64,000 nucleotides of DNA from an archaeon (GTDB lineage Archaea; EX4484-52; WAPT01). Shown here piece by piece: positions 31,265-60,228 of this stretch. The notes beneath the pieces are model-generated. The model saw nothing but the letters and a program-made list of their open reading frames with translations. It was not told where the DNA came from and did no database searches. Made by a program: the position numbers and the translations under genes. The stretch spans positions 1 through 64,000 of the forward strand of contig JAPDKB010000009.1 in assembly GCA_029258795.1 (NCBI GenBank), given 5' to 3'. Position 1 is the stretch's first letter, and every line of letters starts with the position of its first letter.

Positions 31265-31400
31265 TGGTGCGGGGGGTGGGACTTTCAGCTGCGAAGCCTC
31301 CAGCAATTATTCAGCTTTCTCCGCAGCATTCGAACCCACGAAGGCACTGAGCCACGGGACCCTGAATCCCGCGCCTTTGGCCAGGCTCGGCAACCCCCGC
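31265..31400 (-). tRNA. tRNA-Leu(CAG) with 47-nt intron at 59/60 (31282-31328)
   Basis: long variable arm, TT-CAG-GG loop, encoded CCA; BHB TTCG:TGAA. Confidence 0.92.
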
Positions 31401-31467
31401 ACTTCAAGCAAAGAACATGAATTAATTGCGCGCAAAAGTTAAAAATGATAGCACAAAGCTCCTTGAT

Positions 31468-31956
31468 ATGGGTGAGAGAAACGATAGAGAGCTCTTGCTA
31501 ATTTCCGCCTGTCTTTTTGGTCTGGATACCAATTACAAAGGAGAGAACAAAAGGCTTGAGAAGCTAGAAGAACTGCTGAAAGATTATATTTTGATTCCTG
31601 TTTGTCCAGAGCAGCTTGGCGGGCTGGAAACTCCAAGAGTTAGCGCGGAAATAGAAACCGGTAAAATCGGAAATGATGTGCTTGAAGGTAAAGCAAGGGT
31701 GATGAGAGAAGATGGTAAGGATGTTACGGAAAACTTCGTGAGAGGGGCTCAGCAAACTTTGACCATCTGTAAGATTCTTGGGATAAAAAAGGCATTGCTA
31801 AAAGAAAGGAGCCCATCCTGCGGTGTGAATGTAATCTATGATGGAACATTCAGCAGGAAGCTTAAGAAAGGAGAGGGTGTCACCACAGCGTTGCTCAGGC
31901 AACACAGCGTAGAGGTTTTCAGCGAGGAAGAGCTAGATAAACTCTTACGGTGTTGA
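31468..31956 (+). CDS. DUF523 / 2-thiouracil desulfurase family Fe-S protein
   Basis: ISACL, PVCPEQLGGLETPR, LKERSPSCG, GEGVTTALL. Confidence 0.9.
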   Translation: MGERNDRELLLISACLFGLDTNYKGENKRLEKLEELLKDYILIPVCPEQLGGLETPRVSAEIETGKIGNDVLEGKARVMREDGKDVTENFVRGAQQTLTICKILGIKKALLKERSPSCGVNVIYDGTFSRKLKKGEGVTTALLRQHSVEVFSEEELDKLLRC

Positions 31957-33387
31957 AGCAGGATTCGATATTTTCCTCCATCTTACACCGCGCGGCGTGT
32001 CGAAAACAAGCACACCTCTCTTTCTCAGCTCATCTCTTATCCTATCTGCTTCCTCAAACCTCCTTTCCTTTCTCAGCTTTTCCCTTTCTTCAATCATCTT
32101 CATTTCTTCCACGTCCAGCCCTTCACTCCTCTCAAAATCCTCAAAAATGCCGAGCACGCTTGCAAGCTTCAGGAACTGGTCAAGCATGTGCTCCATAGCT
32201 CTTCTACTTTTTCTTTCTTCAGAATTAACGTACTTGTTGATAAAGCTGGCGAATTCAACCAGCACTCTTGTTGCTCTTGAGGCATCAAAATCATCATCCA
32301 TAGCTTCCTCAAACTCCTTAACAAATCTGTCAACTTCCCTTATTGCATCTTCATCAACCCATCCATCATCTTCTGTTGCGTTAATTTCAGCATCGAGCAT
32401 TTCCAAAGCGTTCTCAAGTTTTCTGTAAAGCTTCTCAGAGTCCTTTATTGCCTTTTCATCGAAATCCACAGGGTCTCTGTAATGCACGCTTGCCAAGAAG
32501 AATCTCAGCACACGAGCATCATATTTCTGTAGGAGCTCCCTCATCGTCACTATGTTTCCCAAGCTCTTGCTCATTTTCTCTCCTTTTATTGTGACGAACT
32601 CGTTGTGCATCCAGTAACGCACAAAGGTCTTGCCCGTTGCTGCCTCGCTCTGAGCTATCTCATTTTCGTGATGCGGGAAGATGAGGTCCTTTCCCCCGCC
32701 ATGAATGTCCAGCGTCTCTCCTAGATACTTCATGCTCATGGCTGAACATTCTATATGCCATCCGGGCCTTCCCTTCCCCCAGGGCGAATCAAACACACTG
32801 CCAACTTTATAATCTTCATCCTTAGCGGCCTTCCACAAAGCAAAGTCCCTCACATCTCTTTTGCGCGAGTCTGGCTCTATTCTGTGGCGCTTCAGCTCTT
32901 CAAGATTCTGTTTGCTCAGCTTGCCATAGTCCTTGAAGGAAGGCACATGGAAATACACGGTGCCATCATCAAGCACGTAAGCGTGACCTCTCTCAATTAT
33001 CTTTTCAATCAACTCAACGATCTCCTTTATGTGCTCCGTGACCTTCGGATAGTGATGCGCTTTCTTTATGTTCAGGGGCTCCACTATATCCTCAAAGAAC
33101 GCCTTAATGAAGAATTCCGAAACTTCCTTGAAGCTTTTCCCCTCTTTCAGAGCACGATTTATTATTTTATCATCCACATCAGTGAAGTTCTGCACAAAAA
33201 CAACTTCGTATCCTCTGTATTCCAGCCATCTCCTTATAACATCGAATGCAACACAACTTCTAGCATGCCCTATGTGACTGTAGTCGTAAGGAGTTATACC
33301 ACACACATACATCCTTACCTTTCCTCCCTCAAGCGGAACGAATTCTTCCTTCTTTCTCGTCATGGTGTTATATATCTTAATGGGCAT
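31945..33387 (-). CDS. cysS: cysteinyl-tRNA synthetase
   Basis: MYVCGITPYD..HIGH, GRPGWHIECSAM, DLIFPHHENE, KMSKS. Confidence 0.97.
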   Translation of the reverse strand: MPIKIYNTMTRKKEEFVPLEGGKVRMYVCGITPYDYSHIGHARSCVAFDVIRRWLEYRGYEVVFVQNFTDVDDKIINRALKEGKSFKEVSEFFIKAFFEDIVEPLNIKKAHHYPKVTEHIKEIVELIEKIIERGHAYVLDDGTVYFHVPSFKDYGKLSKQNLEELKRHRIEPDSRKRDVRDFALWKAAKDEDYKVGSVFDSPWGKGRPGWHIECSAMSMKYLGETLDIHGGGKDLIFPHHENEIAQSEAATGKTFVRYWMHNEFVTIKGEKMSKSLGNIVTMRELLQKYDARVLRFFLASVHYRDPVDFDEKAIKDSEKLYRKLENALEMLDAEINATEDDGWVDEDAIREVDRFVKEFEEAMDDDFDASRATRVLVEFASFINKYVNSEERKSRRAMEHMLDQFLKLASVLGIFEDFERSEGLDVEEMKMIEEREKLRKERRFEEADRIRDELRKRGVLVFDTPRGVRWRKISNPASTP

Positions 33388-33441
33388 AAAAGCTGATTTT
33401 GAAAGGAAATTATAAAAGAATTGTTCTTCTCCACCTTCTCC

Positions 33442-33951
33442 ATGGAGTTCTTCTCCCACATCTATGAAAGCTGGCGCGAAATGCAATATGAAAAGTACGA
33501 AGCAATTTTTCGCGAGCTTGAGAGTGCTAACGCGAGTGTGCGGGGAAAAACCGTTGTGGATGTTGGATCTGCACAGGGCTTCCTAATCGATTTTATGAGG
33601 GGGCAGGGAATACAAACCAAGCTGTATGTGGGAGTGGATGTTGATAAAAGCGCGATACGAAAGCTGAATTCCCAGCTCAAAATTTTGGCGAGCGCGGAAG
33701 CATTGCCGTTTAAAGAAGAGGTGTTTGATGTGATGTTCTGTATAGATGTGATTCACCTTTTGAAGGATAAGCTTGATCTTTCTCCGGTGAAGGAGGATGG
33801 GGTGGTTGTGGTTGCTCTACCATCCAGACATGAGAGCAAGTTGCAGAGGTTTGTGGAAGATATGAGCGCTGAAGGAATGGAAATGTTGAGCTCTTTTTCA
33901 ATAGAAGGAAAAGAAAGGGAGTGTGTGGTGGTGCTGAGGAAGAAGCACTAG
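33442..33951 (+). CDS. class I SAM-dependent methyltransferase
   Basis: VVDVGSAQG motif I, GVDVD, AEALPF..EVFD. Confidence 0.8.
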   Translation: MEFFSHIYESWREMQYEKYEAIFRELESANASVRGKTVVDVGSAQGFLIDFMRGQGIQTKLYVGVDVDKSAIRKLNSQLKILASAEALPFKEEVFDVMFCIDVIHLLKDKLDLSPVKEDGVVVVALPSRHESKLQRFVEDMSAEGMEMLSSFSIEGKERECVVVLRKKH

Positions 33952-34780: not shown

Positions 34781-34899
34781 TGGTGCCCCCGCCGGGATTT
34801 TCAGCCGCTTATTCTCTCTCGAAGTAGAGCATGACGGCATTTGAACCCGGGTCATCGGCTCGAGAGGCCGATATCCTTGCCTGGCTAGACTACGGGGGC
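34781..34899 (-). tRNA. tRNA-Glu(CTC) with 42-nt intron at 59/60 (34798-34839)
   Basis: CT-CTC-GA loop, CCA; strict BHB TTCA:TGAA with GCCGT:GCGGC. Confidence 0.93.
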
Positions 34900-36450: not shown

Positions 36451-36570
36451 TGGTGCAGGGGGTGGGATTTCCACGCTTCCGTGCAATTATCGGAAGCGGT
36501 TCGAACCCACGACGGGCCTGCGCCCACCGGATCTTAAGTCCGGCGCCTTTGACCTCTCGGCCACCCCTGC
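36451..36570 (-). tRNA. tRNA-Leu(TAA) with 32-nt intron at 59/60 (36468-36499)
   Basis: CT-TAA-GA loop, variable arm, CCA; intron stem CGCTTCCG:CGGAAGCG. Confidence 0.92.
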
Positions 36571-36611
36571 ACAGCCCAGCAATCTTCACTTTTTGTGTAT
36601 GATTTTTAAAT

Positions 36612-41304: not shown

Positions 41305-41469
41305 TTAGAACTCTCTATCATGAAAAAAGCGTTCTTTTGAGCAAGGAAGAAATTTTATCTCCAGAATTTCTCCTATGAGCTGTTTGTTTCTTTCAGAAAT
41401 GTTCGAACCCCTCAGAAGCTTGAGAGCATGTTCGTATCTTCTCCCGTATCCGTGAATGTCCTCGTTCAT
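41305..41469 (-). pseudogene. N-terminal fragment of an archaeal tyrosine integrase
   Basis: MNEDIHGYGRRYEHALKLLRGSNISERNKQLI resembles the DIHxY...ISERNK N-termini of archaeal site-specific integrases; stops after 54 aa; adjacent to tRNA 3' end. Confidence 0.6.
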
Positions 41470-41522
41470 ACATAATGGAGTTTCCCTGGTCATAGATTGG
41501 GGGAGGCTCCGCTGGTTGCAAT

Positions 41523-41643
41523 TGGCGCCGCGGGCAGGATTTTCAGATGCGGGAAAATCAAAGTCCCACAACCTTCGAACCTGCGCGCCCTTACGGGCAC
41601 CGGCTCTCAAGGCCGGCGCACTACCAGGCTATGCGACCGCGGC
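41523..41643 (-). tRNA. tRNA-Ser(TGA) with 34-nt intron at 59/60 (41540-41573)
   Basis: CT-TGA-GA loop, variable arm, G73, CCA; TTCG:TGAA BHB. Confidence 0.92.
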
Positions 41644-41697
41644 GCGGAAAAGACATGCTTGGCAGAGTTAAAAATAGCGCGAGAGCTTTTAAATTTT

Positions 41698-42303
41698 TTA
41701 GCCGAAGGGAGAATGCCTTAAATCCTTCTCTTTATATCCTAACCGTTTACCCACCTCGTTGGCTATAATCTCACCGCAAATGGTGGCTTTGAATTCGAAA
41801 GATGATCCCATGGACTTGTAGATTGGCGATTCTCCACTGTTGTTGTATTTATCGGAATGAGCTTTAAGCAAGAGATAAATGTCGGATAGCTCAGCCACAG
41901 GCGAATCAGGATTGCCCACTATGGAAGAGACGTAAATGTCGTGTTCTTTTGCTATGCGAATATCTTCCACAACCTTCCTCGTTTTCCCGCTTCCTGAAAC
42001 AGCCAGCATCACATCATTATCGCTCACTGGCGGATGGGTGTAAGTGTTATCCGATGTGACAACAACTCTCTTACCCATCTGAGCTAAGCGCATACCACTA
42101 TACTTACTACTTTCCAAACTTCTTCCCGTGGCGTTGAGCCAGATTGTATTTGCTTCATACATTTTATCCACAATCCTTCCAAAAACATCTGCCTGCCCTT
42201 CCAGTTCATGCTGCAGTTCATCTAGAATTTTTTTGTAAAAATTAATAGGTCCTGCTATGTCAATTTTACAAGAAATCAGCGACTCTCTATTTAATAAGGG
42301 CAT
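41698..42303 (-). CDS. SIS-domain protein, 6-phospho-3-hexuloisomerase-like
   Basis: GRS..MRLAQMG, AVSGSGKT, SPVAELSD, MGSSFE. Confidence 0.8.
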   Translation of the reverse strand: MPLLNRESLISCKIDIAGPINFYKKILDELQHELEGQADVFGRIVDKMYEANTIWLNATGRSLESSKYSGMRLAQMGKRVVVTSDNTYTHPPVSDNDVMLAVSGSGKTRKVVEDIRIAKEHDIYVSSIVGNPDSPVAELSDIYLLLKAHSDKYNNSGESPIYKSMGSSFEFKATICGEIIANEVGKRLGYKEKDLRHSPFG

Positions 42304-42354
42304 GATGCCCTACCACCCTCTAAAAAAAATTAGTACTCAAAATTTAAATTTCCT

Positions 42355-42561
42355 TCAAAGCTTGAGATTATGTTTAAAGTTGGCTTTTTCGGCTTTTTCC
42401 AGCTCCCATGCATCCTCAAGCAGCATATCAGGAACATCACCATCAAGCACCGGAAATGCAAGCCTGCAGTTCTCGCAAACTATGAACATGCCCTTCTCAA
42501 CAACATCTCCCTTGCATTTGGGGCAAGCCAAAATTTCCAGCAGCTTTTTATCCACACCCAT
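42355..42561 (-). CDS. Trm112-like protein
   Basis: [28 protein letters not shown]. Confidence 0.88.
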
Positions 42562-42597
42562 GTGCCGCACCTCAAACTTTCATTCTTTCAAGGATTT

Positions 42598-43560: not shown

Positions 43561-43596
43561 GGAAGAAAAAGTATGGGGGAGCTTTTAATAATCTTT

Positions 43597-43881: not shown

Positions 43882-43891
43882 CCCTTTACCA

Positions 43892-44158: not shown

Positions 44159-44168
44159 ACTCGTCACC

Positions 44169-48202: not shown

Positions 48203-48208
48203 AATTCA

Positions 48209-48673: not shown

Positions 48674-48685
48674 ATCCCATCACCG

Positions 48686-48868
48686 TTAATTGTTTGCAGG
48701 CAGTATCTCTTTTTGATGAGCTACGACCACAACCTCTCTGGTGTATTTCATTCCACACCTTTTACAGGAATAAACTTTTATGCCCTGCACCTTCATGGTT
48801 TCGGCGCGAGCCCCGCACGCAGGGCATATTTCCTCATGAAAGTGAACAAATGGAACATCGATGAACAT
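48686..48868 (-). CDS. small zinc-ribbon protein inside the spc operon
   Basis: CPAC...CKRC; AGGTG RBS; fills the gap between eL32 and eL19. Confidence 0.7.
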   Translation of the reverse strand: MFIDVPFVHFHEEICPACGARAETMKVQGIKVYSCKRCGMKYTREVVVVAHQKEILPANN

Positions 48869-48880
48869 AACTCATCCACC

Positions 48881-49573
48881 TTACTTTTTGCTTTTGGTGG
48901 TTGATTTTTTGGTGGTCTTGGAAGAGCTCTTACTTTTTGCTTTTGAACTGCCTGTGGCTTTTTTGGTTTTACCTTCCACTTTTTCCTTTTTCTTAACCTC
49001 TTTCTTCCTCTCATCACCCTTCTTCTCAGCCGTCTTCTTTTCCGCTTTTTTGGCTTTCTCCTTTACAGCTTTCTTCTCCTCAGCTTCCTCCTCTTCCTTT
49101 GTTTCCTCAACCTTCTTCTCTTCCTTCGCCTTTTCCTCCTTCTCTTTCTTTTTCTTCTCCTCTCTTGCCTTCAATTCAAGATATGAACGCCTCTTTATCC
49201 TTGGATTGAGCACTTTGATGCCAAGTTCTTCAGCTTTCTTCAGGATTTCAAGCTTCTTCTTTGTGCCCACACATGAAGCAACTCTAACAGCTTCCTCTTC
49301 CCTGTTAACCCTTTCAAGATCGGTAGGGTTGTAAACAATCACCTCCCTATAACCAGAAGGATGAAGGTGTCTCGCTTCTTTAGGACCGCCATATCCGGAG
49401 CAAGGCATTTTTGGCTTTCCGAATATTCTTTTCCTCATTTTGTTGTGAATTCCCTTCGGTTTTCTGTAGCCACTCCTGCTTATCTTCTTTATTCTATCTC
49501 CTAAATACCTCCTGAATTTGGGCTTCCTCTTCTTTACTTCCTCTCTGAGCTTTACAAGCTCCTTCATTGCCAT
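48881..49573 (-). CDS. rpl32e: ribosomal protein eL32 with long charged C-terminal tail
   Basis: RKPKG..NKMR, GYG..RHLHPSG, KVLNP followed by ~95-aa K/E tail. Confidence 0.95.
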   Translation of the reverse strand: MAMKELVKLREEVKKRKPKFRRYLGDRIKKISRSGYRKPKGIHNKMRKRIFGKPKMPCSGYGGPKEARHLHPSGYREVIVYNPTDLERVNREEEAVRVASCVGTKKKLEILKKAEELGIKVLNPRIKRRSYLELKAREEKKKKEKEEKAKEEKKVEETKEEEEAEEKKAVKEKAKKAEKKTAEKKGDERKKEVKKKEKVEGKTKKATGSSKAKSKSSSKTTKKSTTKSKK

Positions 49574-50139
49574 AGATCCTCACTCCTCTTCGGCTTCTTG
49601 TAAATATAAATACCATCGAAGAATATTCGCGGATCTCTTCCTGCACGATATTTGCATGCTTGCTCCATGTTGGCTGCCGTTTGCCCCACATCTTCGATGT
49701 TTATGCCTTCCACCACAATCTCTTCCTTATCTATCTTGACCTTGACATCTCCCACTATCTTTGCCTTTCTAGCACCCTTCTCTCCCATGAAATTGCTTAT
49801 GACTATGTAATCTCCTTCCTGCTTCACAGTCATCGGGAAGTGGGTGTAAACTATCTTTAACCGGGCTTCAAAGCCCCTGGCAACACCATACATCATGTTT
49901 TTGATGTGAGACACCCATGTACCGACTATGGCTTTATCCTTTCTCTTTTTGGACTCGGTCCTGACTTTAACAACACCATCATCAACCATAACCTTCACGC
50001 GGGGGTGGGAGAACATTCTTCTTAACTCTCCCTTCTCTCCTTTAACAATGAGAGTATCGCCTTCCAAGCTTACCTCTATTCCTTCCGGAATCTTTACTTC
50101 CCTTTCAATCACCGTTTGCATCTGCTCTTGCTGGCTCAT
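49564..50139 (-). CDS. rpl6: ribosomal protein uL6
   Basis: VYTHFPM, NFMGE, VGQTAA, DPRIFFDGIY. Confidence 0.96.
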   Translation of the reverse strand: MSQQEQMQTVIEREVKIPEGIEVSLEGDTLIVKGEKGELRRMFSHPRVKVMVDDGVVKVRTESKKRKDKAIVGTWVSHIKNMMYGVARGFEARLKIVYTHFPMTVKQEGDYIVISNFMGEKGARKAKIVGDVKVKIDKEEIVVEGINIEDVGQTAANMEQACKYRAGRDPRIFFDGIYIYKKPKRSEDLWQ

Positions 50140-50167
50140 CTCATCTCACCATCAAAAATCACGCAGT

Positions 50168-50551
50168 TCAGTAAACATAAGCAAGCAAAGCCCCACCCTT
50201 TCTTCCCTTAACTTTCGTGTGTGCGACCACACCTTCGTCGGTGGTGATTATGAGCAATCCGACTCCTGCTGCAGGCAAATACTGCTTCTCCCACTCATCA
50301 AACTCATCCTTTTTAACATAAAATCTTGGCCTTATGGCGTTGCAGTTATTGATTCTGCCTTTAAGTTCTATTCTGAATTTTCCGCCCTTACCATCATCGA
50401 TGTACTCGAAGTTTCCTATGTATCCGTACTCCTGCATAACCTTGAGCACATCCCTGACTAACCTTGAGGCGGGAACAACACACTCCTTCTTTCCAACCTT
50501 CTCAGCGTTCTTGATGATTGACATGACATCTGACAGCAAATCGTGCCTCAT
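50168..50551 (-). CDS. rps8: ribosomal protein uS8
   Basis: IKNAEK, GYIGNFE..DDGKGG, GGALLAYVY. Confidence 0.96.
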   Translation of the reverse strand: MRHDLLSDVMSIIKNAEKVGKKECVVPASRLVRDVLKVMQEYGYIGNFEYIDDGKGGKFRIELKGRINNCNAIRPRFYVKKDEFDEWEKQYLPAAGVGLLIITTDEGVVAHTKVKGRKGGALLAYVY

Positions 50552-50562
50552 GATTCACACCT

Positions 50563-50799
50563 TTATTCCAGCTTTTTCCACCCCATCTCTTTGGCTACCT
50601 CCCTGAAGCATCTTCTGCAGATGTTGAGATCATATTTCCTTATCAAGCTCCTGCCCATGTTGCCGCATCTTATGCATCTAACCTTTCCATATCCGGTCGT
50701 TCTCTCCTTCCTTGTATTGTGTTTTAACACCTTCTTCATCTTTCCCGGCTTGTTCTGGTATATTTTCAGGGATTTTCTGAAGTCACCCATAACCATCAC
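50563..50799 (-). CDS. rps14: ribosomal protein uS14 with N-terminal extension
   Basis: CIRCG..IRKY.L..CRRCFRE. Confidence 0.94.
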   Translation of the reverse strand: MMVMGDFRKSLKIYQNKPGKMKKVLKHNTRKERTTGYGKVRCIRCGNMGRSLIRKYDLNICRRCFREVAKEMGWKKLE

Positions 50800-51353
50800 C
50801 CTTCCACAACCTCAACACCAAATTTCTCTTTCATGAATTGGATTGCCTCTTCTCTTTTTATTCTGTGGCTCCTGCCCACCTTCGTTTTTCTTAGCTTCCT
50901 TCTTTTGACCCTAAAACCGGGTCTTTCCAGTTGAATTGCCACATCCATACCAAAAATACCAATGCTGGGATCATATTTTATGCCGGGAATGTCCAGATAT
51001 TCCTTTATTCCAAAATTGACGTTACCTTCATTATCAAAACAGCTCATTCTTAACTTCTTATCCACTGCCTGCAACAGCTTCTCGGCAAGCTCTTCAGCAT
51101 CCTTGCCACGCAGAGTAACTTTAACACCGATCGGCAATCCTCGCCTTATACCAAAAGTTCTGGCCTTTCGTGTGGCTTTCGTCTTCACCGGCTTTTTACC
51201 TGTGAGCTTTTCAAGCAATCTGTATGCTTTTTCCACTTCAGCAACAGGATCCTTCGTGCCTATATTCAGGACTAGCTTACCTATTCTTATTTCCCTCATG
51301 GGATTTGTCTTCGCTTCCTTACCTTTCTGAGCTTGAGTTGTGTTCTCGGCCAT
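50796..51353 (-). CDS. rpl5: ribosomal protein uL5
   Basis: NPMR, FGIRRG.PIG.KVTLRG, YDPSIGIFGMD. Confidence 0.96.
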   Translation of the reverse strand: MAENTTQAQKGKEAKTNPMREIRIGKLVLNIGTKDPVAEVEKAYRLLEKLTGKKPVKTKATRKARTFGIRRGLPIGVKVTLRGKDAEELAEKLLQAVDKKLRMSCFDNEGNVNFGIKEYLDIPGIKYDPSIGIFGMDVAIQLERPGFRVKRRKLRKTKVGRSHRIKREEAIQFMKEKFGVEVVEG

Positions 51354-51378
51354 CCACACTCACCATCAAAAAGCATGA

Positions 51379-52101
51379 CTAATGTACGGTTATTTCGGGC
51401 GCGTCATCGCCCACCACAAAAACATAATCAGCAAGCGTAGTAACTTTCTTATCACCTACCTTCAGAGTTATTCTGTTGGGGTCAAAACCCTTTATTATCT
51501 CAATCTGCTCCACCTTACCGAGTTCGCCAGCCAACTTACCTCTGTAAATCTGTGCAACCTTTCCAACTTCCATCTTTATGTGCTTGAGGATCTTCTGATC
51601 AGGCAAGCTTATGAGCAGGGAGTCCATGGTTTTGTAAACATCCTCCTTCGGATTGCAGGGATCCTTAACCTTGATAAGTATGTTCCTGCCATCGTGAAGG
51701 TTGAGCTGGATGTGACCGCCCTTAACCACGGTCTTGTTCATTATCCTGCAGAGCTTCATGTTCGCTTCCTTTTCCGGGATTTCGACCAGCACAAACCTCT
51801 CCTTCTTTGGAACGACTCTGTAGTGCTTGCCAGCATCAGGTAGGGATATGACATCCATCACTCCGACTCCAAAGCGGTCATCCTTGCGCACAACACCATC
51901 CACAACAACCTTTCCGGCAGCCACAATTTTCTTGGCTTCTCTTGCGTTTCTTGCGTAACCGAGCATGTCTCGCAACACTATTCTTAAAGGTATTGCTCTA
52001 TCATGCGGATGTCCGCCCCCCTTCACAACAGGAGCAAATTTGCTAACCTTGACTGGTATGCTGTAAACCTTTGGTGCAGCATATCTTTTTAGATGTGCCA
52101 T
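51379..52101 (-). CDS. rps4e: ribosomal protein eS4
   Basis: HLKRYAAP, VGVMDV, QLNLHDGRN. Confidence 0.96.
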   Translation of the reverse strand: MAHLKRYAAPKVYSIPVKVSKFAPVVKGGGHPHDRAIPLRIVLRDMLGYARNAREAKKIVAAGKVVVDGVVRKDDRFGVGVMDVISLPDAGKHYRVVPKKERFVLVEIPEKEANMKLCRIMNKTVVKGGHIQLNLHDGRNILIKVKDPCNPKEDVYKTMDSLLISLPDQKILKHIKMEVGKVAQIYRGKLAGELGKVEQIEIIKGFDPNRITLKVGDKKVTTLADYVFVVGDDAPEITVH

Positions 52102-52520
52102 CAGCTGCTCACCTCTTCTTTAGCAGATTCACCACTTTTTCTTGCAATCTTTTTAATTCTTTTCTCATCTTCCGTGTTCAACTCCACGATCTGAAGGTTG
52201 GATGGGTGGAGGGGTACAAGCACCTCACTACCATCCGTCTTCTTCCTCTTGACATTTTCAACATAAACGCGTCCTTTCTTTAGATTAACTCTTGTAACCT
52301 TACCCTCAACACCCTTAAATGAACCCCTCAACACCCGTACGACATCTCCTGTTCTTACAACAACATTTCTCCTTCCGTATTTCTTTCGTAGCTCTTTTGA
52401 GAGGTTGACTGAGAGGAATTTCCTCCTTATGTGGAGAGGAGCATTAGCTATGTATTTCCTCTGTTTTCTCGGGCTTTTGCTGCGCACCCAGTTCCTTGAA
52501 AACTTGACCTTCATAACCAT
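52101..52520 (-). CDS. rpl24: ribosomal protein uL24
   Basis: [24 protein letters not shown]. Confidence 0.96.
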
Positions 52521-52528
52521 TCACCCCT

Positions 52529-52927
52529 TCACATCACTATGCTTGCTATTTTACCCACAGCCGGAAACCTTTCCACCGCCTCTTTTGCTACAACACCCTT
52601 TATTTCCCTTCCTCTTGGCTCCATCCTTTCATTTATGAGCACCGCAGCATTATCCTCAAAACAGACAAACATACCGTTTCTTCTCCTGTATTTTCTTCTC
52701 TGCCTGACCACCACCGCATGCACAACTTCATTCCTTATCTTTTCATTACCCTTTATAACGGTGCAGATCACAACATCTCCCACTCCTGCTCTTGCAATCC
52801 TCCTTCTCGTGCCTTTGTAACCCTTGACACCTATCACTTTGAGTAGCTTAGCTCCAGTATTATCTATACATTTCAGTACTGTACCTATCTGCACGGCTTT
52901 TATCGGTTTGACGCTTATGGCTTTCAT
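52529..52927 (-). CDS. rpl14: ribosomal protein uL14
   Basis: DNTGAK, AGVGD, FEDNAAV. Confidence 0.96.
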   Translation of the reverse strand: MKAISVKPIKAVQIGTVLKCIDNTGAKLLKVIGVKGYKGTRRRIARAGVGDVVICTVIKGNEKIRNEVVHAVVVRQRRKYRRRNGMFVCFEDNAAVLINERMEPRGREIKGVVAKEAVERFPAVGKIASIVM

Positions 52928-52939
52928 ATGCGGCACCCG

Positions 52940-53356
52940 TTACGCTTCTTTCACCACTTCTATCACAACAAAGCTCTTGGTTTTGCTTAGCGGCTTACAC
53001 TCCGCAATTCTAACGATATCTCCTTCTTTAGCGTTTATGCATGGCGGGTTGTGTGCAGCCACTTTCGTTCTGCAGCGCATGTATCTCTTCAGCTTTTTGA
53101 TTTTTCTCAAGTATTCCCAACCAACAACAACTGTCTTATCCATTTTGGCTGAAAGCACCACACCCTGAAAAATCTTACCCCTTATCTTGAGGTGACCATG
53201 ATAAGGACATTTTTCATCATTACAAACCTTCTTTGGCGGGTTTTTAACCTCAATACCTATATCCCTTATTTTTATTTTCACTTCTTTTTTCTTCTCAGCA
53301 GTCTTCTTACCACTACTTTCGCTCTTCTTTCCTTTTTGGGCTGTTTTCTCAGCCAT
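52940..53356 (-). CDS. rps17: ribosomal protein uS17 with charged N-terminal extension
   Basis: CNDEKCPYHG, AHNPPC, ECKPLSKTK. Confidence 0.96.
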   Translation of the reverse strand: MAEKTAQKGKKSESSGKKTAEKKKEVKIKIRDIGIEVKNPPKKVCNDEKCPYHGHLKIRGKIFQGVVLSAKMDKTVVVGWEYLRKIKKLKRYMRCRTKVAAHNPPCINAKEGDIVRIAECKPLSKTKSFVVIEVVKEA

Positions 53357-53654
53357 TCAATCCACCCCATATTTTTCGTGGAAACCTTTTCTTTATCCTA
53401 TCTTCGGGCCTGCCCTGAATCACCTTACCATCCACTTCCACCACGCTCCCATCCGGAAGCGTGAAGTGGAACACACAGTTCTTCTTTTCAACCCTGATCT
53501 CCCTGCCATCTCGCTTTCTTATCACAAGCGTGTTTTTCGTTTCATTTATGACTTGCCCTTCAACCCCCACAAGCGTGGGGTCACTGCTTTTTACTATTTT
53601 AACATCGAGGCCTATGAGCTCATGCCTGACGAGGTTCTCTGGCTTTATTGGCAT
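53349..53654 (-). CDS. rnp1: RNase P protein Rpp29
   Basis: HELIGL, G.VINETKN, GRPEDR. Confidence 0.93.
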   Translation of the reverse strand: MPIKPENLVRHELIGLDVKIVKSSDPTLVGVEGQVINETKNTLVIRKRDGREIRVEKKNCVFHFTLPDGSVVEVDGKVIQGRPEDRIKKRFPRKIWGGLNG

Positions 53655-53658
53655 CGGC

Positions 53659-53964
53659 TCACTCCACTATCGAGCTTTCCGGAAAGCCCTCCTCGATGAG
53701 CATCTTTTTGACCTTCAGGCGATGATCTCCCTGCAGTTCTATCTTACCGTCCTTGTAGGTACCACCACATGCAAGTTTTTTCTTGAACTTCTTGAGCAGT
53801 GATTTGATGTCTATGCTCTTTTCATCAAGCCCTTCTATAATCGTTATGGTTTTGCCGAATTTCCTCTTTTCCACATAAATTTTAATTTTCTGCTTTTCCC
53901 TCGCTATGGTTTCGCAGATGCACAGGTCTTTTGGAAGACCACAAACATTACATATCTCCGTCAT
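53659..53964 (-). CDS. sui1: translation initiation factor aIF1/SUI1
   Basis: [23 protein letters not shown]. Confidence 0.95.
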
Positions 53965-54179
53965 TTCTTACTAAGCACCTCTTTTTCCCTTTTTATGGTC
54001 AATATCCTTGCTATAGTTCTTTTTATCTCTCTGACCTTACCTGGATTGTCCGGCACGCCTCCCACCTTTGCCTTTGCTCTTTCTTTCATCAGCTCCATTC
54101 TCAAATCTGCGAGTTTCTTCTCAAGTTCTTCGTCACTCATGTCTCTTATCTGTGTTGCCTTGAGTATTGCCATGATCAT
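53961..54179 (-). CDS. rpl29: ribosomal protein uL29
   Basis: [24 protein letters not shown]. Confidence 0.95.
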
Positions 54180-55066
54180 TCACCACTTTTCTTTTCCTCA
54201 TTTTTCTTCACAGAGCCCGAAGCATCAGCATCGGATTTCTTTCCCTTATCCATACCTTCCTTTTTCTTGACCTCTTTCTTCCTCTCATCACCCTTCTTCT
54301 CAGCCGTCTTCTTTTCCGCTTTTTTTGCCTTCTCCTTTACAGCGTTCTTCTCATCACTCCCTTCCTTTGTTTCCTCAACCTTTTCCTCCTCCTTCTCAGC
54401 TTCCTCCTCTTCCTTATCCTCTTCTTTCTTTACCGCGAACTTCTTAATGATGTCCTCACTTATTTCTACTTCTCCCCGCGCAACTCTCTTTTCAAGTTCC
54501 ATCTCAGGAGGCATAAAAGGCATTATTTCGACCTTTACTCCGATAACTCCCGGCTTGAGCACGGCTTGTTCCTTCGCAACATCCACGTATTCCTGAGCTG
54601 GATGTCCGCATTTCATGACATAACCAGCAACATACTTTTCTGTTCTGTGTCTCTCTCCCGTGAGCTTCCCGCTTACATCTATTTCAACACCAACCGCTCC
54701 AGCTTCCATGATCCTGTTGAGATACATGGTGACTACGCGCTTATAGTGCAAGCCCCTTTCAAGAGCGAATTTTATGCGTTTGGCAACCACCTTTGCATCA
54801 AGATAAGGATTATCAACACCTTTAACCTCTATCTGCGGGTTCTCTATGCCAAACTCCTCCTTCATTTTTTCCTGAATCTTGGCTATTCTTTCTCCACCCC
54901 TACCTATGACAAGTGCGGGTCTTCCAGCATATATAACTATTCTGGTTGCCAGAGGAGTCCTCTTAATCTCACACCGGCTGTACTCCGCTCTATCCAGCTC
55001 TTTATCCAAAAATTCAGCTATCTTCATGTTCACTATTCCTTCCTGAACGAACTTTCTCTCTATCAT
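54176..55066 (-). CDS. rps3: ribosomal protein uS3 with long charged C-terminal tail
   Basis: P.LVIGRGG KH motif, SGKL, GVIGVKV; ~85-aa K/E tail. Confidence 0.96.
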
Positions 55067-55073
55067 CCTTCCT

Positions 55074-55505
55074 TCACCTTTGCTCCAAAACTACTGAGAT
55101 GTGCACGCTCTTTCTTTTCTGCCCTCTGAGGGGTGAGCGCCTTGGCCTGTAAAATGTGGGGGCTTTCATCACCAAAAATGATTTGATGAAGAGCTTTGAA
55201 ACATCAAGTCCCTGATTCTCAGCGTTTTTCACAGCACTGTTGATGAGATCAAGTATTTCCTTTGCAGCGTTAACTGGATACCTTCCAGCCCCGATACCTG
55301 GCTTGTGAGCCACATCTCTGTTGAACCTGCCGAATGGCACAGCTCTCTTCATCTCAATGACATCCTGAAGGAAGCGCCTTGCTTTCTCAACGTTCATTCC
55401 CTTTATAGCTTTTCCTATTTCCACAGAGGCTTTCCATGAAATCCTTACATACCTTTTGCATGCTCTTGCCATTCTTGAAGGATCGTAATCCTGCACGTTA
55501 TACAT
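55074..55505 (-). CDS. rpl22: ribosomal protein uL22
   Basis: IKGM, AVPF.RF, GRYPV..A, NAE..GL. Confidence 0.95.
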   Translation of the reverse strand: MYNVQDYDPSRMARACKRYVRISWKASVEIGKAIKGMNVEKARRFLQDVIEMKRAVPFGRFNRDVAHKPGIGAGRYPVNAAKEILDLINSAVKNAENQGLDVSKLFIKSFLVMKAPTFYRPRRSPLRGQKRKSVHISVVLEQR

Positions 55506-55517
55506 CTCGGCTCACCT

Positions 55518-55907
55518 TCACTTCCTACCTACGTGCTTTGTTGATTTGGATGCACCTATACCTGGACCGCTGTGCTGCACGGGCTTTCTGGTTAGAGCAA
55601 ATTCTCCCAACCTGTGCCCTATCATTTCAGCGGTTATGGTGACGGGCACAAACTCTTTACCATTGTGGACGCCTATAGTGCGCCCCACCATTTCGGGCAG
55701 GATGATCATGTCTCTGCAGTGAGTTTTTATGAACTTGTCCTTGGAGGTTTTCCTTATTTTTTGAAGCAGCTTCTTCTCAGCTTCAGTGAGCCCTCTCTTC
55801 AAGTGTCTCCTAGCCCTTGCTGTCAGTAATTCAGCTAACTCTTCCAAGCTCATCTTCTGCAATTCTTCAAGCGTGTAACCTCTGAACCTGAACTCCTTTC
55901 GAGCCAT
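55518..55907 (-). CDS. rps19: ribosomal protein uS19
   Basis: [21 protein letters not shown]. Confidence 0.96.
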
Positions 55908-55914
55908 TTACCAT

Positions 55915-56628
55915 TCACCTCTTCCTTCTACCGGTTCTTCTCGCGGCTATGCTACCCACCTTTCTGCCGGGCGGTGCACGCCTGCTAACAGTTTTGGGCA
56001 CACCAAAGCTCTTACCACCGAACTTGTGATCACATGCGTTCATGGCTTTAGCCCTCGTTCTCGGGTACTTCTTACCTCTCGCATGCATCGCGTGCCACTT
56101 ATTGCCAGCTTTCACAAATGGCTTTTTCGGCCTCTCTCCACCTGCAACTATACCTATTGTGGCTCTGCAGTTCGGATTGAGCCCCTTGGTTTTTCTTGAT
56201 GGGAATTGCACTGTGACTTTATCAACATCTCTTGAAAGGACTATGGCATAACCACCGCTTGCCCTCACGAGCTTTCCACCATCGCCAGGAACAACCTCTA
56301 TGTTAAACACGGGTGTACCTTCAGGTATGTCTTTAAGGGGCAGCACATTCCCTATCTTTAGCTGTGCTCCCTCTCCAACTTCCACAACGTCTCCCGTCTT
56401 CACACCTTCACTTGCAATGAAATACCATTTCTCACTCGTGCCATCGAATTTAACGAGTGCAAGAGGAGCTGTTCTGCCTGGATCATCCACTATATCTATT
56501 ATCTTACCTTTAAGGTTGCCCTTCTGAAGGGGAGGATATTTAACATCAGCAACGTAGTTGAAGCTTGGCACTAAGTAGGTTTTGGATACGCCCCTTCCAC
56601 GGCGCTGAGCGATTATTCTTGTACCCAT
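55915..56628 (-). CDS. rpl2: ribosomal protein uL2
   Basis: QRRGRG, DPGRTAP, PGDGG, AMNACDH. Confidence 0.96.
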   Translation of the reverse strand: MGTRIIAQRRGRGVSKTYLVPSFNYVADVKYPPLQKGNLKGKIIDIVDDPGRTAPLALVKFDGTSEKWYFIASEGVKTGDVVEVGEGAQLKIGNVLPLKDIPEGTPVFNIEVVPGDGGKLVRASGGYAIVLSRDVDKVTVQFPSRKTKGLNPNCRATIGIVAGGERPKKPFVKAGNKWHAMHARGKKYPRTRAKAMNACDHKFGGKSFGVPKTVSRRAPPGRKVGSIAARRTGRRKR

Positions 56629-56643
56629 ACATCACCACCATCA

Positions 56644-56922
56644 TCAGATTATGCCTAATTTAGCAGCTATGTCTGTAGCATTGTAATCCTTGCTTACGGC
56701 TATGTATGCCTTCTTCCTGCCCTTCGCATCTATCAACGTTCTAACCTTTCTGACCTTAACCTTAAACATGTTTTCAAAAGCTTTCTTTATCTTTTCCTTG
56801 TTAGCTCTTCTATCCACTATAAATGTTATGGTGTTCTCCCTCTCTATGAGAGAGATTGCCTTTTCTGTAAGCACGGGATAAAGCAACACTTCAAATGGGT
56901 CGTTAACCTTAACTTCAGCCAT
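56644..56922 (-). CDS. rpl23: ribosomal protein uL23
   Basis: TEKA, NTITFIV, KKAYI. Confidence 0.95.
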   Translation of the reverse strand: MAEVKVNDPFEVLLYPVLTEKAISLIERENTITFIVDRRANKEKIKKAFENMFKVKVRKVRTLIDAKGRKKAYIAVSKDYNATDIAAKLGII

Positions 56923-56923
56923 T

Positions 56924-57751
56924 TCAGCTCACCGCGAAAAGCTTTTTCTCCTCCAGCTCTTTTATGGCATTCTCACTCCAGATGCTCAACCTTCCTGCAT
57001 GACCACCCGGAGCCAGCATCTCCACGTTGAGATCCTTCACAAGGCAGACATCAACACCGGGTATGTTTCTTGCTGCCTTGAATATTCCATCATCCTTACT
57101 CACCACTATGAGGGGGCCTTTCCTCTTCTTGTATCTCCTTCCTCTCATCTTACCCTTTCCGGCCCTGTATCTTTTCTCGCGCACCCTTTCCAGCTCTTCC
57201 TCCAGACCCAGCTTTTTGAGCAGGTTTTCAAGCTCTTTTGTCTTCTTCACACTTTCAAGCTCGCTAACAACGACTATTGGTAGCTTTTCAACTTTATCCG
57301 CTCTGTGTCCTCTCTTAAGCACGAGGGTTTTCCTTGCAAGAGCGGCTATGGCAGCAAGTATAGCTTTCCTCCTCTCCTTCTTGTTTATCTTCTGCTCCCA
57401 CTTCTTCTCAGCTTTTGGTGGATGAGCTTTCCTACCCTTGACAGCATGTGGCACAAACCTCACAACTCCGGTCATGTGGCCTGAACCAACTCTTATGCGT
57501 GGCAGCCTCGCTATACCTCTGTTTATCCAGGCCCCGTAAGCGCCTCTTCTTCCTCTGTAATCAGCACTAGTTCTCTTTCCTGCCAGAGGATCAGCTCCAT
57601 AGGGCTGCCTCCTGTGGCTCATGATGGCAAGGAAAGCTCTGATTATGAGATCATGCCTTACCTCCTCGCTGAAGTGCTCGGGGAGAGTGATCTCGCCCTT
57701 CTTGCTTCCGTCCAGACCATAAACAGGAACTTTCAACTCAGCCATAGCCAT
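56924..57751 (-). CDS. rpl4: ribosomal protein uL4
   Basis: RQPYG, AHPPK, RAGKGKMRGRRY, LAPGG. Confidence 0.96.
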   Translation of the reverse strand: MAMAELKVPVYGLDGSKKGEITLPEHFSEEVRHDLIIRAFLAIMSHRRQPYGADPLAGKRTSADYRGRRGAYGAWINRGIARLPRIRVGSGHMTGVVRFVPHAVKGRKAHPPKAEKKWEQKINKKERRKAILAAIAALARKTLVLKRGHRADKVEKLPIVVVSELESVKKTKELENLLKKLGLEEELERVREKRYRAGKGKMRGRRYKKRKGPLIVVSKDDGIFKAARNIPGVDVCLVKDLNVEMLAPGGHAGRLSIWSENAIKELEEKKLFAVS

Positions 57752-57752
57752 T

Positions 57753-58760
57753 TCACCATATCAGCTGCTTGATCTCGGGAGGTTCTGTTGGGGGCTCATG
57801 AGACCTTATAGCATATCTTATCCTCACCAATCTCTTTGATGGCCCAGGAACAGAACCATGGATAATTATATAATCTGATTTCACAACACCATAGTGTTTC
57901 CAGCCACCGGGTCTTGCAACACGGGAAGCGTCATTTCCAACCTCCATAATCCACTTGTTGTACTCGGTCCTTGTGTGATACCCCATCTGACCCATCTGAG
58001 GAACGGTCCACATAGTTCTTGCAGGGTGCCATGGACCGAGAGTTCCAGCTTTTCTCCTTACCTTCCTTGCCTTGTGGTGCAGAAGCTTCACACCAAATCT
58101 CTTTACGGAGCCCTGGAATCCCTTACCCTTGGTAACGGCCGTGACATCAACAAAAACACCGGGAGAAAAGACATCGGAAATGCGAAGTTCCTTGCCGAGA
58201 AGGGAGGAAACCTCATCGAGAACAGCAGAAAGGGAATCAGAAGCAGAATCGGAAGAAGCGTCGTTTACCCAGTTTGTGGGGAAATAGTGAATCTCAAAGA
58301 TCTCAGGTGTCTTCTTTCCTATTCCTGCAAGCTTCGGCTGCGTTGCAACAATCAGCTTAACCTTATCAAAACCATTTTTGACCTTATCAAGCACAGCATT
58401 TTTATCCTTGTTCGGCTTTATTCCGGTTATTTTTCGTGCAACCTCCTTGTCTATCTTCTCACTCCACAGTTCTGTTATTGCTTCGTATCCATATGGTGTC
58501 TTTTTATAGAAGCGAGCAGCAAGAACCTTGAGAGGTGGTGTTTCTATCAGGGTTGCGGGCTCCACAATTTCCTTGTTCTTGAACATACCCTCCCTTTTTT
58601 CTATGTAATCAACCTGAAGCATCCCTACTTTGTATCCGGCAAATTCCACCACATTCTTGCCATCAACAGCAGGAACATGCCTGACTCTAGCATAAATGCG
58701 CTTAGCCCTAACTCTGGGGGAAAACTGCAATGATCCTCTCCTCGGGTGGTAATAGCTCAT
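57753..58760 (-). CDS. rpl3: ribosomal protein uL3
   Basis: PRRGSL, GYKVGM, TKGKGFQG, GQMGYHTRTE. Confidence 0.96.
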   Translation of the reverse strand: MSYYHPRRGSLQFSPRVRAKRIYARVRHVPAVDGKNVVEFAGYKVGMLQVDYIEKREGMFKNKEIVEPATLIETPPLKVLAARFYKKTPYGYEAITELWSEKIDKEVARKITGIKPNKDKNAVLDKVKNGFDKVKLIVATQPKLAGIGKKTPEIFEIHYFPTNWVNDASSDSASDSLSAVLDEVSSLLGKELRISDVFSPGVFVDVTAVTKGKGFQGSVKRFGVKLLHHKARKVRRKAGTLGPWHPARTMWTVPQMGQMGYHTRTEYNKWIMEVGNDASRVARPGGWKHYGVVKSDYIIIHGSVPGPSKRLVRIRYAIRSHEPPTEPPEIKQLIW

Positions 58761-59003
58761 TTCCACACACCACGCAGCATATTCATGGCTCGTAGCTTGT
58801 GTTCACAAGATTTGTAATCATGAAAATGATAACATTTAAATATTTTGGTGATATCTGGCTGGAGGCAACAACCTATACATACCCTCATACAAAAAAAGCG
58901 ACAGCTTTTAATCAAACACCAAAATTTTTAAACGTTGTTATTCTCGCCTTCACGACTTTAAAGAAAAAATATTTTTAAAGTAGCGTCGGCAATAAAATAC
59001 CCA

Positions 59004-59603
59004 ATGACTGAAAAACTCAGCGAAAAGGTGAAGAAATTCCTTGTAGTGAAAAAGAAAGTAAAACTGGAGGAAATATCCAGCTATAAAACTCAGATTCTCA
59101 TAATAGGGTCAACGATTTCCTTCCTTCTCGGAGGTTTTGACCTCTTACTTCCTTTTCTTCTTGCATGGTTTTCATACTTTATATTTGAGAGTTACGCATG
59201 GGAATTTGGTTTGGATAATCTTGGGGTGGAGCTCATAACACTGGCATGTGTGCTCGTGGGGATGAAATTCGAACCAGCATTTTCCTTCATTTACGCGTAT
59301 GTTACAATAGGCACAATGTCATCCATAGCAAAGTTTGTTGATCCCGACTCCGATGAGATATCAAATCCATTCGGAAGCTATGCTTTTGGGTATGGTGTTG
59401 CTGCGCTTTCAGCATCTTATCTAGCAGGCAACCTACCTTTCCCAGAACTTCTGGTTGCTTCTGCCATACTTGCCAATCTCGCGAGATTTGCTTTTGACCT
59501 CTTGGTTTACAGAAGTATTGATGATATTATATGGAGGGTGGGTAATATTTTCTTTAACTGCATTATTGCAATGTTCTTTTCATTTCTCAGCATGGTTATC
59601 TAG
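59004..59603 (+). CDS. multi-pass membrane protein
   Basis: several hydrophobic helices; no recognised family. Confidence 0.6.
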   Translation: MTEKLSEKVKKFLVVKKKVKLEEISSYKTQILIIGSTISFLLGGFDLLLPFLLAWFSYFIFESYAWEFGLDNLGVELITLACVLVGMKFEPAFSFIYAYVTIGTMSSIAKFVDPDSDEISNPFGSYAFGYGVAALSASYLAGNLPFPELLVASAILANLARFAFDLLVYRSIDDIIWRVGNIFFNCIIAMFFSFLSMVI

Positions 59604-60080
59604 GGTTTTTCGCAATCTTGTGTAGATGGGCGTGTATTTTCGTTTCTCGTAAAATCTGATCGAGTTGTGATTTCCAACGTAAGCGTCAAGCTCAACAATT
59701 TTGATGTCCATCTCATGCGCTTTCTTCTCGGCTGCTGAAAGCAATGCACTCCCCACCCCTTTGGAACGCCACTCTTCAACCACATAGATATTATCTACAT
59801 ACAACACCTTTTCCCGCCTATAGATTCCAGCATAAGTTATGACTCTCCCGCTCACCACACCGATAATCTTCCCATCCTCACTCTCAGCCACGAGCAACAA
59901 TTTCGTACCCTTTTTCATACCTCTAATACAAGAGTTAACGTAGTTCTTCAGGCTACCCTCACAATCATCTCCACTTTTGAGAAGGGGATCGTAATACCTC
60001 TCCTCTTCCTGCATCAGCTTGAAAAGTCGCAGTATATGGTCCGAGTCATCATCTTCGGCTTCCCTTATTTCCGCATGCAT
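59580..60080 (-). CDS. GNAT family acetyltransferase
   Basis: IYVVEEWRSKGVGSALL, N..SIRFYEK. Confidence 0.9.
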   Translation of the reverse strand: MHAEIREAEDDDSDHILRLFKLMQEEERYYDPLLKSGDDCEGSLKNYVNSCIRGMKKGTKLLLVAESEDGKIIGVVSGRVITYAGIYRREKVLYVDNIYVVEEWRSKGVGSALLSAAEKKAHEMDIKIVELDAYVGNHNSIRFYEKRKYTPIYTRLRKTLDNHAEK

Positions 60081-60110
60081 GAAGGGATCACACCATCAAA
60101 CAAAAATCTA

Positions 60111-60228
60111 TGGGCCGGCCAGGATTTTCAGCTGCGGAGTTCCAGCATATTCAGCTTTGCTCCGCAGCAATCGAACCTGGGACCTCTCCCGCGTCAGGGG
60201 AGCGTCATAACCCCTAGACCACCGGCCC
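60111..60228 (-). tRNA. tRNA-Val(GAC) with 45-nt intron at 59/60 (60125-60169)
   Basis: CT-GAC-GC loop; BHB TTCG:TGAA with GCTGCGGAG:CTCCGCAGC. Confidence 0.92.

Follow-up and report, generated by a model that had tools for sequence, protein, structure and literature searches.

The original account of transfer RNA (tRNA) intron transposition in the Thermoproteales is reportedly that of Fujishima 2010 (Mol Biol Evol). Here, we analyze a 64,000-nucleotide (nt) stretch of archaeal DNA (contig C5:1-64000, hereafter the window) from a member of the DPANN archaea (Diapherotrites, Parvarchaeota, Aenigmarchaeota, Nanoarchaeota and Nanohaloarchaeota), in which the genes for tRNA-Leu(CAG) and tRNA-Val(GAC) carry similar introns between tRNA positions 59 and 60, in the T-loop, and not at the canonical position 37/38. 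On comparison of their sequences, these introns are most probably paralogous copies of a lineage-specific family of ~45–50-nt bulge-helix-bulge (BHB) introns that occupies 59/60 only, and the comparisons support recent copying of the introns between non-homologous tRNA genes.

The closest described case is that of the Thermoproteales, where the occurrence of similar introns in tRNAs of more than one isotype has been read as transposition (PMC4033280, PMC4090602). Going by the available text of these sources, the two cases share near-identical BHB introns across isotypes in one genome, unrelated tRNA bodies, gain after speciation, and a mechanism that is unknown. Introns with a partner at least 80% identical in a different isotype make up 8/29 here, compared with 28.3% in the Thermoproteales, by a different clustering method, in a preprint for which they served as positive control (10.64898/2026.10.13.758758). 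On the other hand, the Thermoproteales are Crenarchaeota, and their transposed introns are described at both canonical and non-canonical positions (PMC4033280, PMC4090602), whereas all 11 copies of the family here sit at 59/60. Further differences here are the mostly strict 3-4-3 BHB motifs, the single short EndA gene, which is not of the heterotetramer type, and the presence of empty sites in congeners.

Introns at 59/60 are also found in ARMAN-2 (Candidatus Micrarchaeum acidiphilum), whose own epsilon2 endonuclease cut one such intron in vitro (PMC3239211). Like the present genome, that of ARMAN-2 is a small DPANN genome with over half of its tRNA genes disrupted. Its endonuclease, however, is a three-unit protein of 395 amino acids (aa), whereas the enzyme encoded here has a single unit of 197 aa, with the M. 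kandleri (E 6e-38) and M. jannaschii (E 5e-31) enzymes as its best solved relatives; the available text on ARMAN-2 reports no intron sequence families or copying (PMC3239211). Across DPANN lineages, an alpha4-type EndA with an L3 loop has been linked to more tRNA gene disruption (Kaneta et al. 2018, PMC5829648), and the combination of a short EndA with many non-canonical introns is found here as well; site-specific intron families are not described in the available text of that study. Repeated intron gains in Asgard archaea, for which no general route was found (preprint 10.64898/2026.10.13.758758), resemble ours in being many, independent, located at BHB-forming sites and deduced from compact orthologues. 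The copying signal, near nil in that preprint (1.5% of 1,062 sequences vs. 0.6% of shuffles), is strong here. In Caldiarchaeum subterraneum, a tRNA-Thr gene was disrupted through a mobile element (PMC3293823); as here, the gain is visible as heterogeneity among close relatives, but that element is 1.8 kb long and encodes a recombinase, whereas we see no element remnants and no evidence of a transposase or recombinase.

The mechanism of archaeal tRNA intron gain is called unknown in reviews (PMC4033280, PMC4090602, in the text available). In the literature searched, supplements aside, which may list DPANN intron positions, we found no description of a T-loop-specific intron family in DPANN archaea. 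What sets this case apart is a family confined to one universal site, a DPANN host with a one-gene endonuclease, a burst in one species among its congeners, and exact empty sites. With copies 81–95% identical in unrelated tRNAs and empty sites in congeners, this is a natural case for studying how tRNA introns are gained.

A sequence-only reading of the window had proposed that the Leu(CAG) and Val(GAC) introns are homologous and that one had been copied to the other gene, by reverse splicing or gene conversion. The intron sequences that it quoted are present on the minus strand at exactly 31282–31328 and 60125–60169. We compared intron cores, leaving out the first base and the last six, at which the BHB motif allows no choice, since TTCR of the T-loop has to find its pairing partner in the YGAA tail. 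The two cores match in 35 of 41 aligned columns, with a score of 26. Mononucleotide shuffling (5000 times) gave a maximum score of 7 (z 9.6), and 5000 shuffles that preserved the 9-base-pair (bp) inner helix gave a maximum of 14 (z 7.9), so that none in either set reached the observed score, which answers the refuting condition set by that reading. The exons, by contrast, are as dissimilar as had been said (46/87 identical, 53%), and the homology of the introns is thus borne out. A further link, to the intron of tRNA-Leu(TAA), fared less well: the 8-mer ATAATTGC is indeed shared with Leu(CAG), but alignment of the introns is not significant (z 0.4–0.9), and we rejected the kinship, as a shared 8-mer appeared in 134 of 20,000 shuffles of that pair and the genome offers 406 pairs.

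To place the pair in its genome (G000 among our genome handles; 1.17 Mb, 23 contigs, 96.3% complete), the introns had to be found despite the standard tools. Run unaided on the whole genome, ARAGORN made 25 gene calls, of which several are wrong, and the Rfam tRNA model gave 23 matches; both missed tRNA-Leu(CAG) and tRNA-Val(GAC). Two genome-wide scans were made, one for all sites with 3-4-3 BHB geometry (214,586 candidates) and one for all inserts flanked by a T-stem, and in both the insert was deleted by script and ARAGORN was run again on the remainder. In this way, 29 tRNA genes were found to carry a 59/60 intron. A thirtieth such intron was read by eye in Arg(TCG), a gene that also has a D-loop intron. 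Another 13 tRNA genes proved to have no T-loop intron, with a four-tRNA cluster on contig C11 left out of the count. Thus, 30 of at least 44 tRNA genes are interrupted at 59/60, and Thr(CGT) is a further multi-intron candidate. Two ARAGORN labels were corrected by hand, 'Thr' to Ala(GGC) (G3:U70) and 'Ala' to Leu(GAG). Since standard finders miss or mis-call most such genes, the tRNA complements of such genomes will look incomplete.

The all-against-all comparison of intron cores, which the sequence-only reading had suggested, revealed a family wider than the Leu–Val pair. Nineteen of the 406 pairs score at least 15, a level not seen in any of 100 helix-keeping shuffled sets (maximum 13). Single linkage joins them into one cluster of 11 members, namely Leu(CAG), Leu(CAA), Val(GAC), Ala(CGC), Cys(GCA), Gly(CCC), Gly(TCC), Glu(TTC), Pro(TGG), Pro(CGG) and Met(CAT), and one of two, Ala(GGC) and Thr(GGT). 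The nearest partner of the Val(GAC) intron is that of Ala(CGC) on contig C3 (37/39), and Leu(CAA), on the same contig, has the intron of Leu(CAG) without a single change (47/47). A profile of the family, searched against the genome at E < 0.01, recovered the 11 members, all at 59/60, and no other sequence; neither BLAST nor the profile found a copy elsewhere in tRNAs or outside tRNA genes in this genome. An exact-pattern scan for the family frame in 185,579 species genomes, a collection that possibly does not include our own genome, returned a single record, which is a congener.

Was the intron copied, or the whole gene? In all five pairs tested, intron cores are more alike (81–95%) than the exons around them (53–72%): Val/Leu(CAG), 85% vs. 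53%; Val/Ala(CGC), 95% vs. 72%; Ala(CGC)/Leu(CAG), 83% vs. 60%; Cys/Gly(CCC), 84% vs. 68%; and Gly(TCC)/Glu(TTC), 81% vs. 72%. The exception is Leu(CAG)/Leu(CAA), two genes that share an unchanged 95-nt stretch, running from the anticodon stem through the intron to the 3' end, and differ at a few positions on the 5' side; this likeness can be explained by duplication or conversion at the level of the gene. A different history is suggested by two tRNA-Pro(TGG) genes lying 6 kb apart (C3:46239-46364 and C3:52095-52214), which appear near-identical in their exons and have unrelated T-loop introns, one a 48-nt family member and the other 42 nt long and without a close relative. This pair suggests intron replacement or independent gain after duplication.

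The state of the same sites in relatives gives the direction of change. We used the 40 nearest genomes, which comprise two congeners (G001 and G002) and members of seven other families of the same order (a request at phylum level brought in no other order), and fetched and typed the tRNA loci of the two congeners. Thirteen tRNA species that are interrupted here show no break at 59/60 in either congener: Val(GAC), Ala(CGC), Cys(GCA), Gly(TCC), Gly(CCC), Gln(TTG), Thr(GGT), Pro(GGG), Ser(TGA), Leu(TAG), Trp(CCA), the Met(CAT) with the long canonical intron, and Arg(TCG). Pro(CGG) is without interruption in G001, the only congener in which it was found. The spliced Val(GAC) sequence is identical to its uninterrupted G002 orthologue at 73/73 positions, so that the insertion is exact. 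Compared with the intron-free congener genes, the spliced Cys sequence has 1–2 differences and that of Gly(CCC) has 1, all outside the T-arm, and overall the Val, Ala(CGC), Cys and Gly exons show 0–9 differences from uninterrupted congener orthologues. A single degenerate 59/60 pattern, which gave 30 matches in our genome (2 with the reversed pattern as control), gave 8 in each congener and 0–11 in the other 38 relatives.

These comparisons also bear on timing. Orthologous T-loop introns of our genome and the congeners are 32–67% identical, with Leu(CAG) the best at 62–67%, those of G001 and G002 are 86–95% identical to each other, and paralogous family introns within our genome are 80–95% identical. 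As the paralogues are more alike than the orthologues, the copies are younger than the split from the sampled congeners. In this sense, the 'recent' of the sequence-only reading holds, and copying between tRNA genes is supported by the contrast of core and exon identity in the pair, by the uninterrupted Val genes of congeners and outgroups, and by the greater likeness of paralogous than of orthologous introns. What does not hold is a private event between Leu and Val, nor is the Leu(CAG)/Val pair, at 85%, the youngest copying event. A related intron occupies the Leu(CAG) site in all three genomes of the genus, and Leu(CAG) is the likely old member of the family. By these comparisons, the Leu(CAG) site was already filled in the genus ancestor and the family was later copied, in our lineage, into Val(GAC), Ala(CGC), Cys(GCA), Gly(TCC), Gly(CCC) and other genes, with other gains at 59/60 alongside; the net result is the 30 interrupted genes here compared with about 8 in each congener.

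Why should the family be confined to one position? Both the Leu(CAG) and the Val(GAC) intron fit the 3-4-3 BHB motif, with the T-stem as the outer helix (5/5), a central helix of 4/4 and an inner helix of 9 bp. In the central helix of both, the T-loop TTCG pairs with TGAA near the intron 3' end through three Watson–Crick pairs and one G-U pair. The bulges are AAT/AGT in Leu(CAG) and ATT/AAT in Val(GAC), and the GC-rich inner helix has the form GCTGCGGAG/CTYCGCAGC in both. In the two genes, T-stem and intron helix are recovered by thermodynamic folding (z -3.9 for Leu(CAG) and -4.3 for Val(GAC)); the motif was scored by geometry because folding leaves the 4-bp central helix open. By these geometric criteria of our own, the central helix is complete (4/4) in 26 of the 29 introns genome-wide and the motif strict in 21; a tail of YGRA type is present in all 29, and removal leaves a tRNA that ARAGORN can call in each. 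A profile search of the genome found one splicing endonuclease, the 197-aa open reading frame, as the single match to PF01974 (90.6 bits), and the ligase RtcB is also encoded (582 bits).

From this anatomy and gene content, we infer that the T-loop introns are excised. In the pre-tRNA, the T-stem would serve as the outer helix and the GC-rich hairpin of the intron as the inner helix, the 4-bp central helix would arise between UUCR of the T-loop and a YGAA or YGGA tail at the intron 3' end, and the splice sites would lie in the two 3-nt bulges, to be cut by the single 197-aa EndA before the exons are joined by RtcB. The exon half of the 59/60 motif, the T-stem plus TTCR, would be common to every tRNA, with the intron tail bringing the other half. 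Since this half is the same in all tRNAs, such an intron should be spliceable in any tRNA gene, but at exactly 59/60 only; introns at 37/38, by contrast, would need to pair with the tRNA-specific anticodon loop. This suggests that 59/60 recurs as an archaeal intron site because the T-loop offers an invariant exon half of the splicing motif. Self-splicing group I or II introns were considered and rejected, as there is no Rfam match to them in the window and 45–47 nt is far too short.

Could the likeness of the introns have arisen without copying? Unrelated introns might be pushed to one sequence by the BHB motif and the preferences of the endonuclease. Constraint of this kind exists, as shown by the YGRA-type tail of all 29 introns, which is imposed by pairing with TTCR, and by the recurrence of a TGC...GCTGAAAA frame. 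However, the constrained ends were left out of our tests, the helix-keeping shuffles never came near the observed scores, the likeness covers loops as well as helices, and the 18 other 59/60 introns, under the same constraints in the same genome, are unrelated in sequence; we regard convergence as very improbable. Equally so is the duplication of whole intron-bearing tRNA genes followed by a change of identity (anticodon switch or remoulding), with the intron carried along. That history fits Leu(CAG)/Leu(CAA) and stands for that pair only. The exons of other intron-sharing genes are just 53–72% identical, and those of Val, Ala(CGC), Cys and Gly nearly match their uninterrupted orthologues in the congeners, which for the Val/Leu pair refutes it. 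Somewhat less far-fetched, though still improbable, is that introns were ancestral at all of these sites and were lost from the congeners and other relatives, with no recent copying at all. At least one T-loop pattern match occurs in 39 of the 41 genomes of the order, and turnover must include losses or replacements, because the congeners themselves differ: Glu(CTC) is uninterrupted in G001 and has in G002 a T-loop intron different from ours, and Ala(GGC) is uninterrupted in G002 and has in G001 an intron unrelated to ours. But ancestral presence needs many parallel exact losses and leaves between-isotype identities of 81–95% unexplained when orthologous introns are 32–67% identical. The outgroups also speak against it. 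An intron-free Val query found contiguous matches over positions 1–73 in genomes of family f2 (79–86% identity) and was split at the intron solely in our own genome. With Cys(GCA) as the query, both congeners and 12 outgroup genomes from four families gave contiguous matches, and the match was split (at position 61) only here.

Several observations weigh against the copying of one intron family between genes, or narrow its reach. The outgroup states come from two genes, Val and Cys, and the isoacceptor of the outgroup Val matches was judged by identity alone. G001 and G002 are close to each other and hence represent one sister lineage, and the genomes are metagenome bins, 90–96% complete. Folding omits the weak 4-bp central helix in five of the six window introns, the intron of His being the exception. 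Finally, for 18 of the 30 T-loop introns no related sequence can be recognised in the genome; copying thus cannot account for all gains, and other intron sources must exist.

By what route were the introns copied? The tRNAs that host the family have at least five different T-stems (GTGGG, CCAGG, CCGGG, CCCGG and GGGGG), and the flanks common to donors and recipients are consequently only GGTTCRAW and TCC. We tentatively favor a copy at the DNA level, by gene conversion or template switching guided by these short shared flanks, without giving it even chances; selection on single-copy essential genes would then remove inexact events, so that only exact insertions remain. Against it, a shared flank of 7–8 plus 3 bases is unusual for such an event, and co-conversion of flanking bases would be expected sometimes, yet no co-converted T-arm bases were seen in Val, Ala(CGC), Cys, Gly(CCC), Gln or Pro(GGG) when compared with the congeners. 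A non-autonomous DNA transposon, such as a miniature inverted-repeat transposable element (MITE) or a palindromic element of the IS200/IS605 type, was rejected, as the 96% complete genome yielded no Y1 transposase (Y1_Tnp), no TnpB-type match and no copy outside T-loops. Target duplication at the insertions does not exceed a 1-base ambiguity.

The alternative is a route through RNA, which would replace the DNA route and leave copying itself as it stands. By means of its YGAA tail, the excised intron would pair with the T-loop of a different tRNA in its mature form; this tRNA would be cut and the intron ligated in by EndA and RtcB acting in reverse, and the product would be copied to DNA by RNA-templated repair. 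Such a course agrees with insertions that are exact to the splice site in unchanged recipient exons, with flanks shared only as GGTTCRAW and TCC across at least five T-stems, with the placement of all copies at the only site that allows pairing of the tail, and with the presence of genes for both enzymes. A retro-copy of a mature tRNA should also bring a newly encoded CCA, and of 11 comparisons of filled and empty sites, 4 are for this, 1 is against and 6 are unchanged: Gln(TTG), Thr(GGT), Pro(CGG) and Glu(CTC) encode CCA here where a congener does not, while Val(GAC) is without an encoded CCA here and has one in both congeners. This signal is weak, as CCA is common anyway, being encoded in 10 of our 13 genes without a T-loop intron and in 21–23 of 27 genes in the congeners, and it also varies at Val(TAC), which is intron-free throughout. 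No reverse transcriptase (RVT_1) domain was found in the 96% complete genome, and we know of no demonstration that archaeal splicing enzymes act in reverse, which we count against this route. On balance, we consider it unlikely, and less probable than the DNA route; the probability that these two leave over belongs to other routes. A bolder proposal, and a doubtful one that we rate a little lower still, is that the family is a self-contained 'homing' BHB intron whose excised RNA invades any tRNA at 59/60 by reversal of EndA and RtcB and becomes fixed in DNA without a dedicated reverse transcriptase. If so, the family would be seen in this genome in the middle of a burst, with donors available as well as both filled and empty sites, and the origin of archaeal tRNA introns would become directly testable.

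Spread at 59/60 may be recurrent in the order. In G020, which belongs to another family of the order, the Gln(TTG) and Glu(CTC) genes share similar 46-nt T-loop introns. These two and Arg(TCT) of G032 are the only loci from other genera that were named with a full-length intron; in 9 of 14, ARAGORN named no host after removal, and 2 more look mis-spliced. T-loop introns from several genera of the order appear to share a recurring motif in their 3' half, (A)TTTCC(A/G)G or CTTTTCAA, which is seen in G005, G013, G014, G016, G020 and G032 and in our own Cys, Gly(CCC) and Pro introns, and in genus g3 it forms one arm of a hairpin. The recurrence could reflect shared ancestry or a functional element.

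The features of the window are collected in Table 1. It holds six of the 30 T-loop introns, and its archaeal character is evident from the content, a 16S–tRNA-Ala–23S operon and an archaeal RNase P RNA matched by Rfam.

Table 1. Intron-bearing tRNA genes and ribosomal RNA (rRNA) region of the window.
Feature	Coordinates	Strand	Remarks
tRNA-Leu(CAG) gene	31265-31400	-	named Leu(cag) by ARAGORN once intron removed
Leu(CAG) 5' exon	31329-31400	-	
Leu(CAG) T-loop intron	31282-31328	-	47 nt
Leu(CAG) 3' exon	31265-31281	-	includes encoded CCA
tRNA-Val(GAC) gene	60111-60228	-	ARAGORN after intron removal
Val(GAC) 5' exon	60170-60228	-	
Val(GAC) T-loop intron	60125-60169	-	45 nt
Val(GAC) 3' exon	60111-60124	-	CCA not encoded
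tRNA-Leu(TAA) gene	36451-36570	-	ARAGORN after intron removal
Leu(TAA) T-loop intron	36468-36499	-	32 nt
tRNA-Glu(CTC) gene	34781-34899	-	
Glu(CTC) T-loop intron	34798-34839	-	42 nt; strict BHB
tRNA-Ser(TGA) gene	41523-41643	-	
Ser(TGA) T-loop intron	41540-41573	-	34 nt; relaxed motif
tRNA-His(GTG) candidate T-loop intron	29963-30003	-	41 nt; His(gtg) by ARAGORN after removal
rRNA operon and RNase P RNA	23597-29607	-	Rfam
16S rRNA	28025-29607	-	Rfam
tRNA-Ala(TGC)	27865-27938	-	Rfam
23S rRNA	24767-27706	-	Rfam
Archaeal RNase P RNA	23597-23919	-	Rfam; then tRNA-Arg(TCT)

Unaided ARAGORN mis-called Leu(TAA) as 36487-36571. The Ser(TGA) intron has a complete central helix (4/4), and its motif is classed as relaxed because of one mismatch before the inner helix starts. 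The His candidate is the weakest of the six, with a full central helix (TTCG:CGAA, 4/4), a poor inner helix and a fold z of -2.0. The 16S match is 1583 nt long compared with 1478 positions in the model, which leaves room for a possible insertion.

Elsewhere in the genome, tRNA-Arg(TCG) (C1:64100-64330, minus strand), with its D-loop and T-loop introns, and tRNA-Leu(GAG) (C2:63832-64010), with an extra ~39-nt insert between the anticodon stem and the variable arm, are mislabeled or missed by ARAGORN. The canonical introns of tRNA-Leu(CAA) (55 nt, C3:113039-113230) and tRNA-Met(CAT) (74 nt, C2:176500-176720), two genes that have a T-loop intron in addition, contain box C/D-like motifs (TGATGA ... 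CTGA), which by analogy with the known tRNA-Trp case suggests that they may encode methylation guides. The C11 cluster comprises four intron-free tRNA genes in ~330 nt, and their isoacceptors duplicate those found elsewhere in the genome; C10, C12 and C17 have a G+C content of 28–31% compared with 41–45% on the main contigs. These four contigs could represent DNA of foreign or mobile origin that was binned with the genome.

Contigs from other sequencing allowed a look at the Val locus; among the runs listed for the region, none is of RNA. No intron-free Val allele was seen in these fragmented contigs: none of the 15 joints shown skips 60125-60169, with 35 further joints outside that view. In the Ser(TGA) region, the contigs of the other study gave loose ends only, which come from other conserved tRNAs. 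The Val intron is bridged without a gap by contigs from two runs of one other study, in records spanning 59926-60271 and 59830-60228. Contigs of a 2018 run labelled as a hydrothermal vent metagenome, from a study other than the probable source, cover parts of 41400-60400, and 13 of 48 pieces are at least 99% alike.

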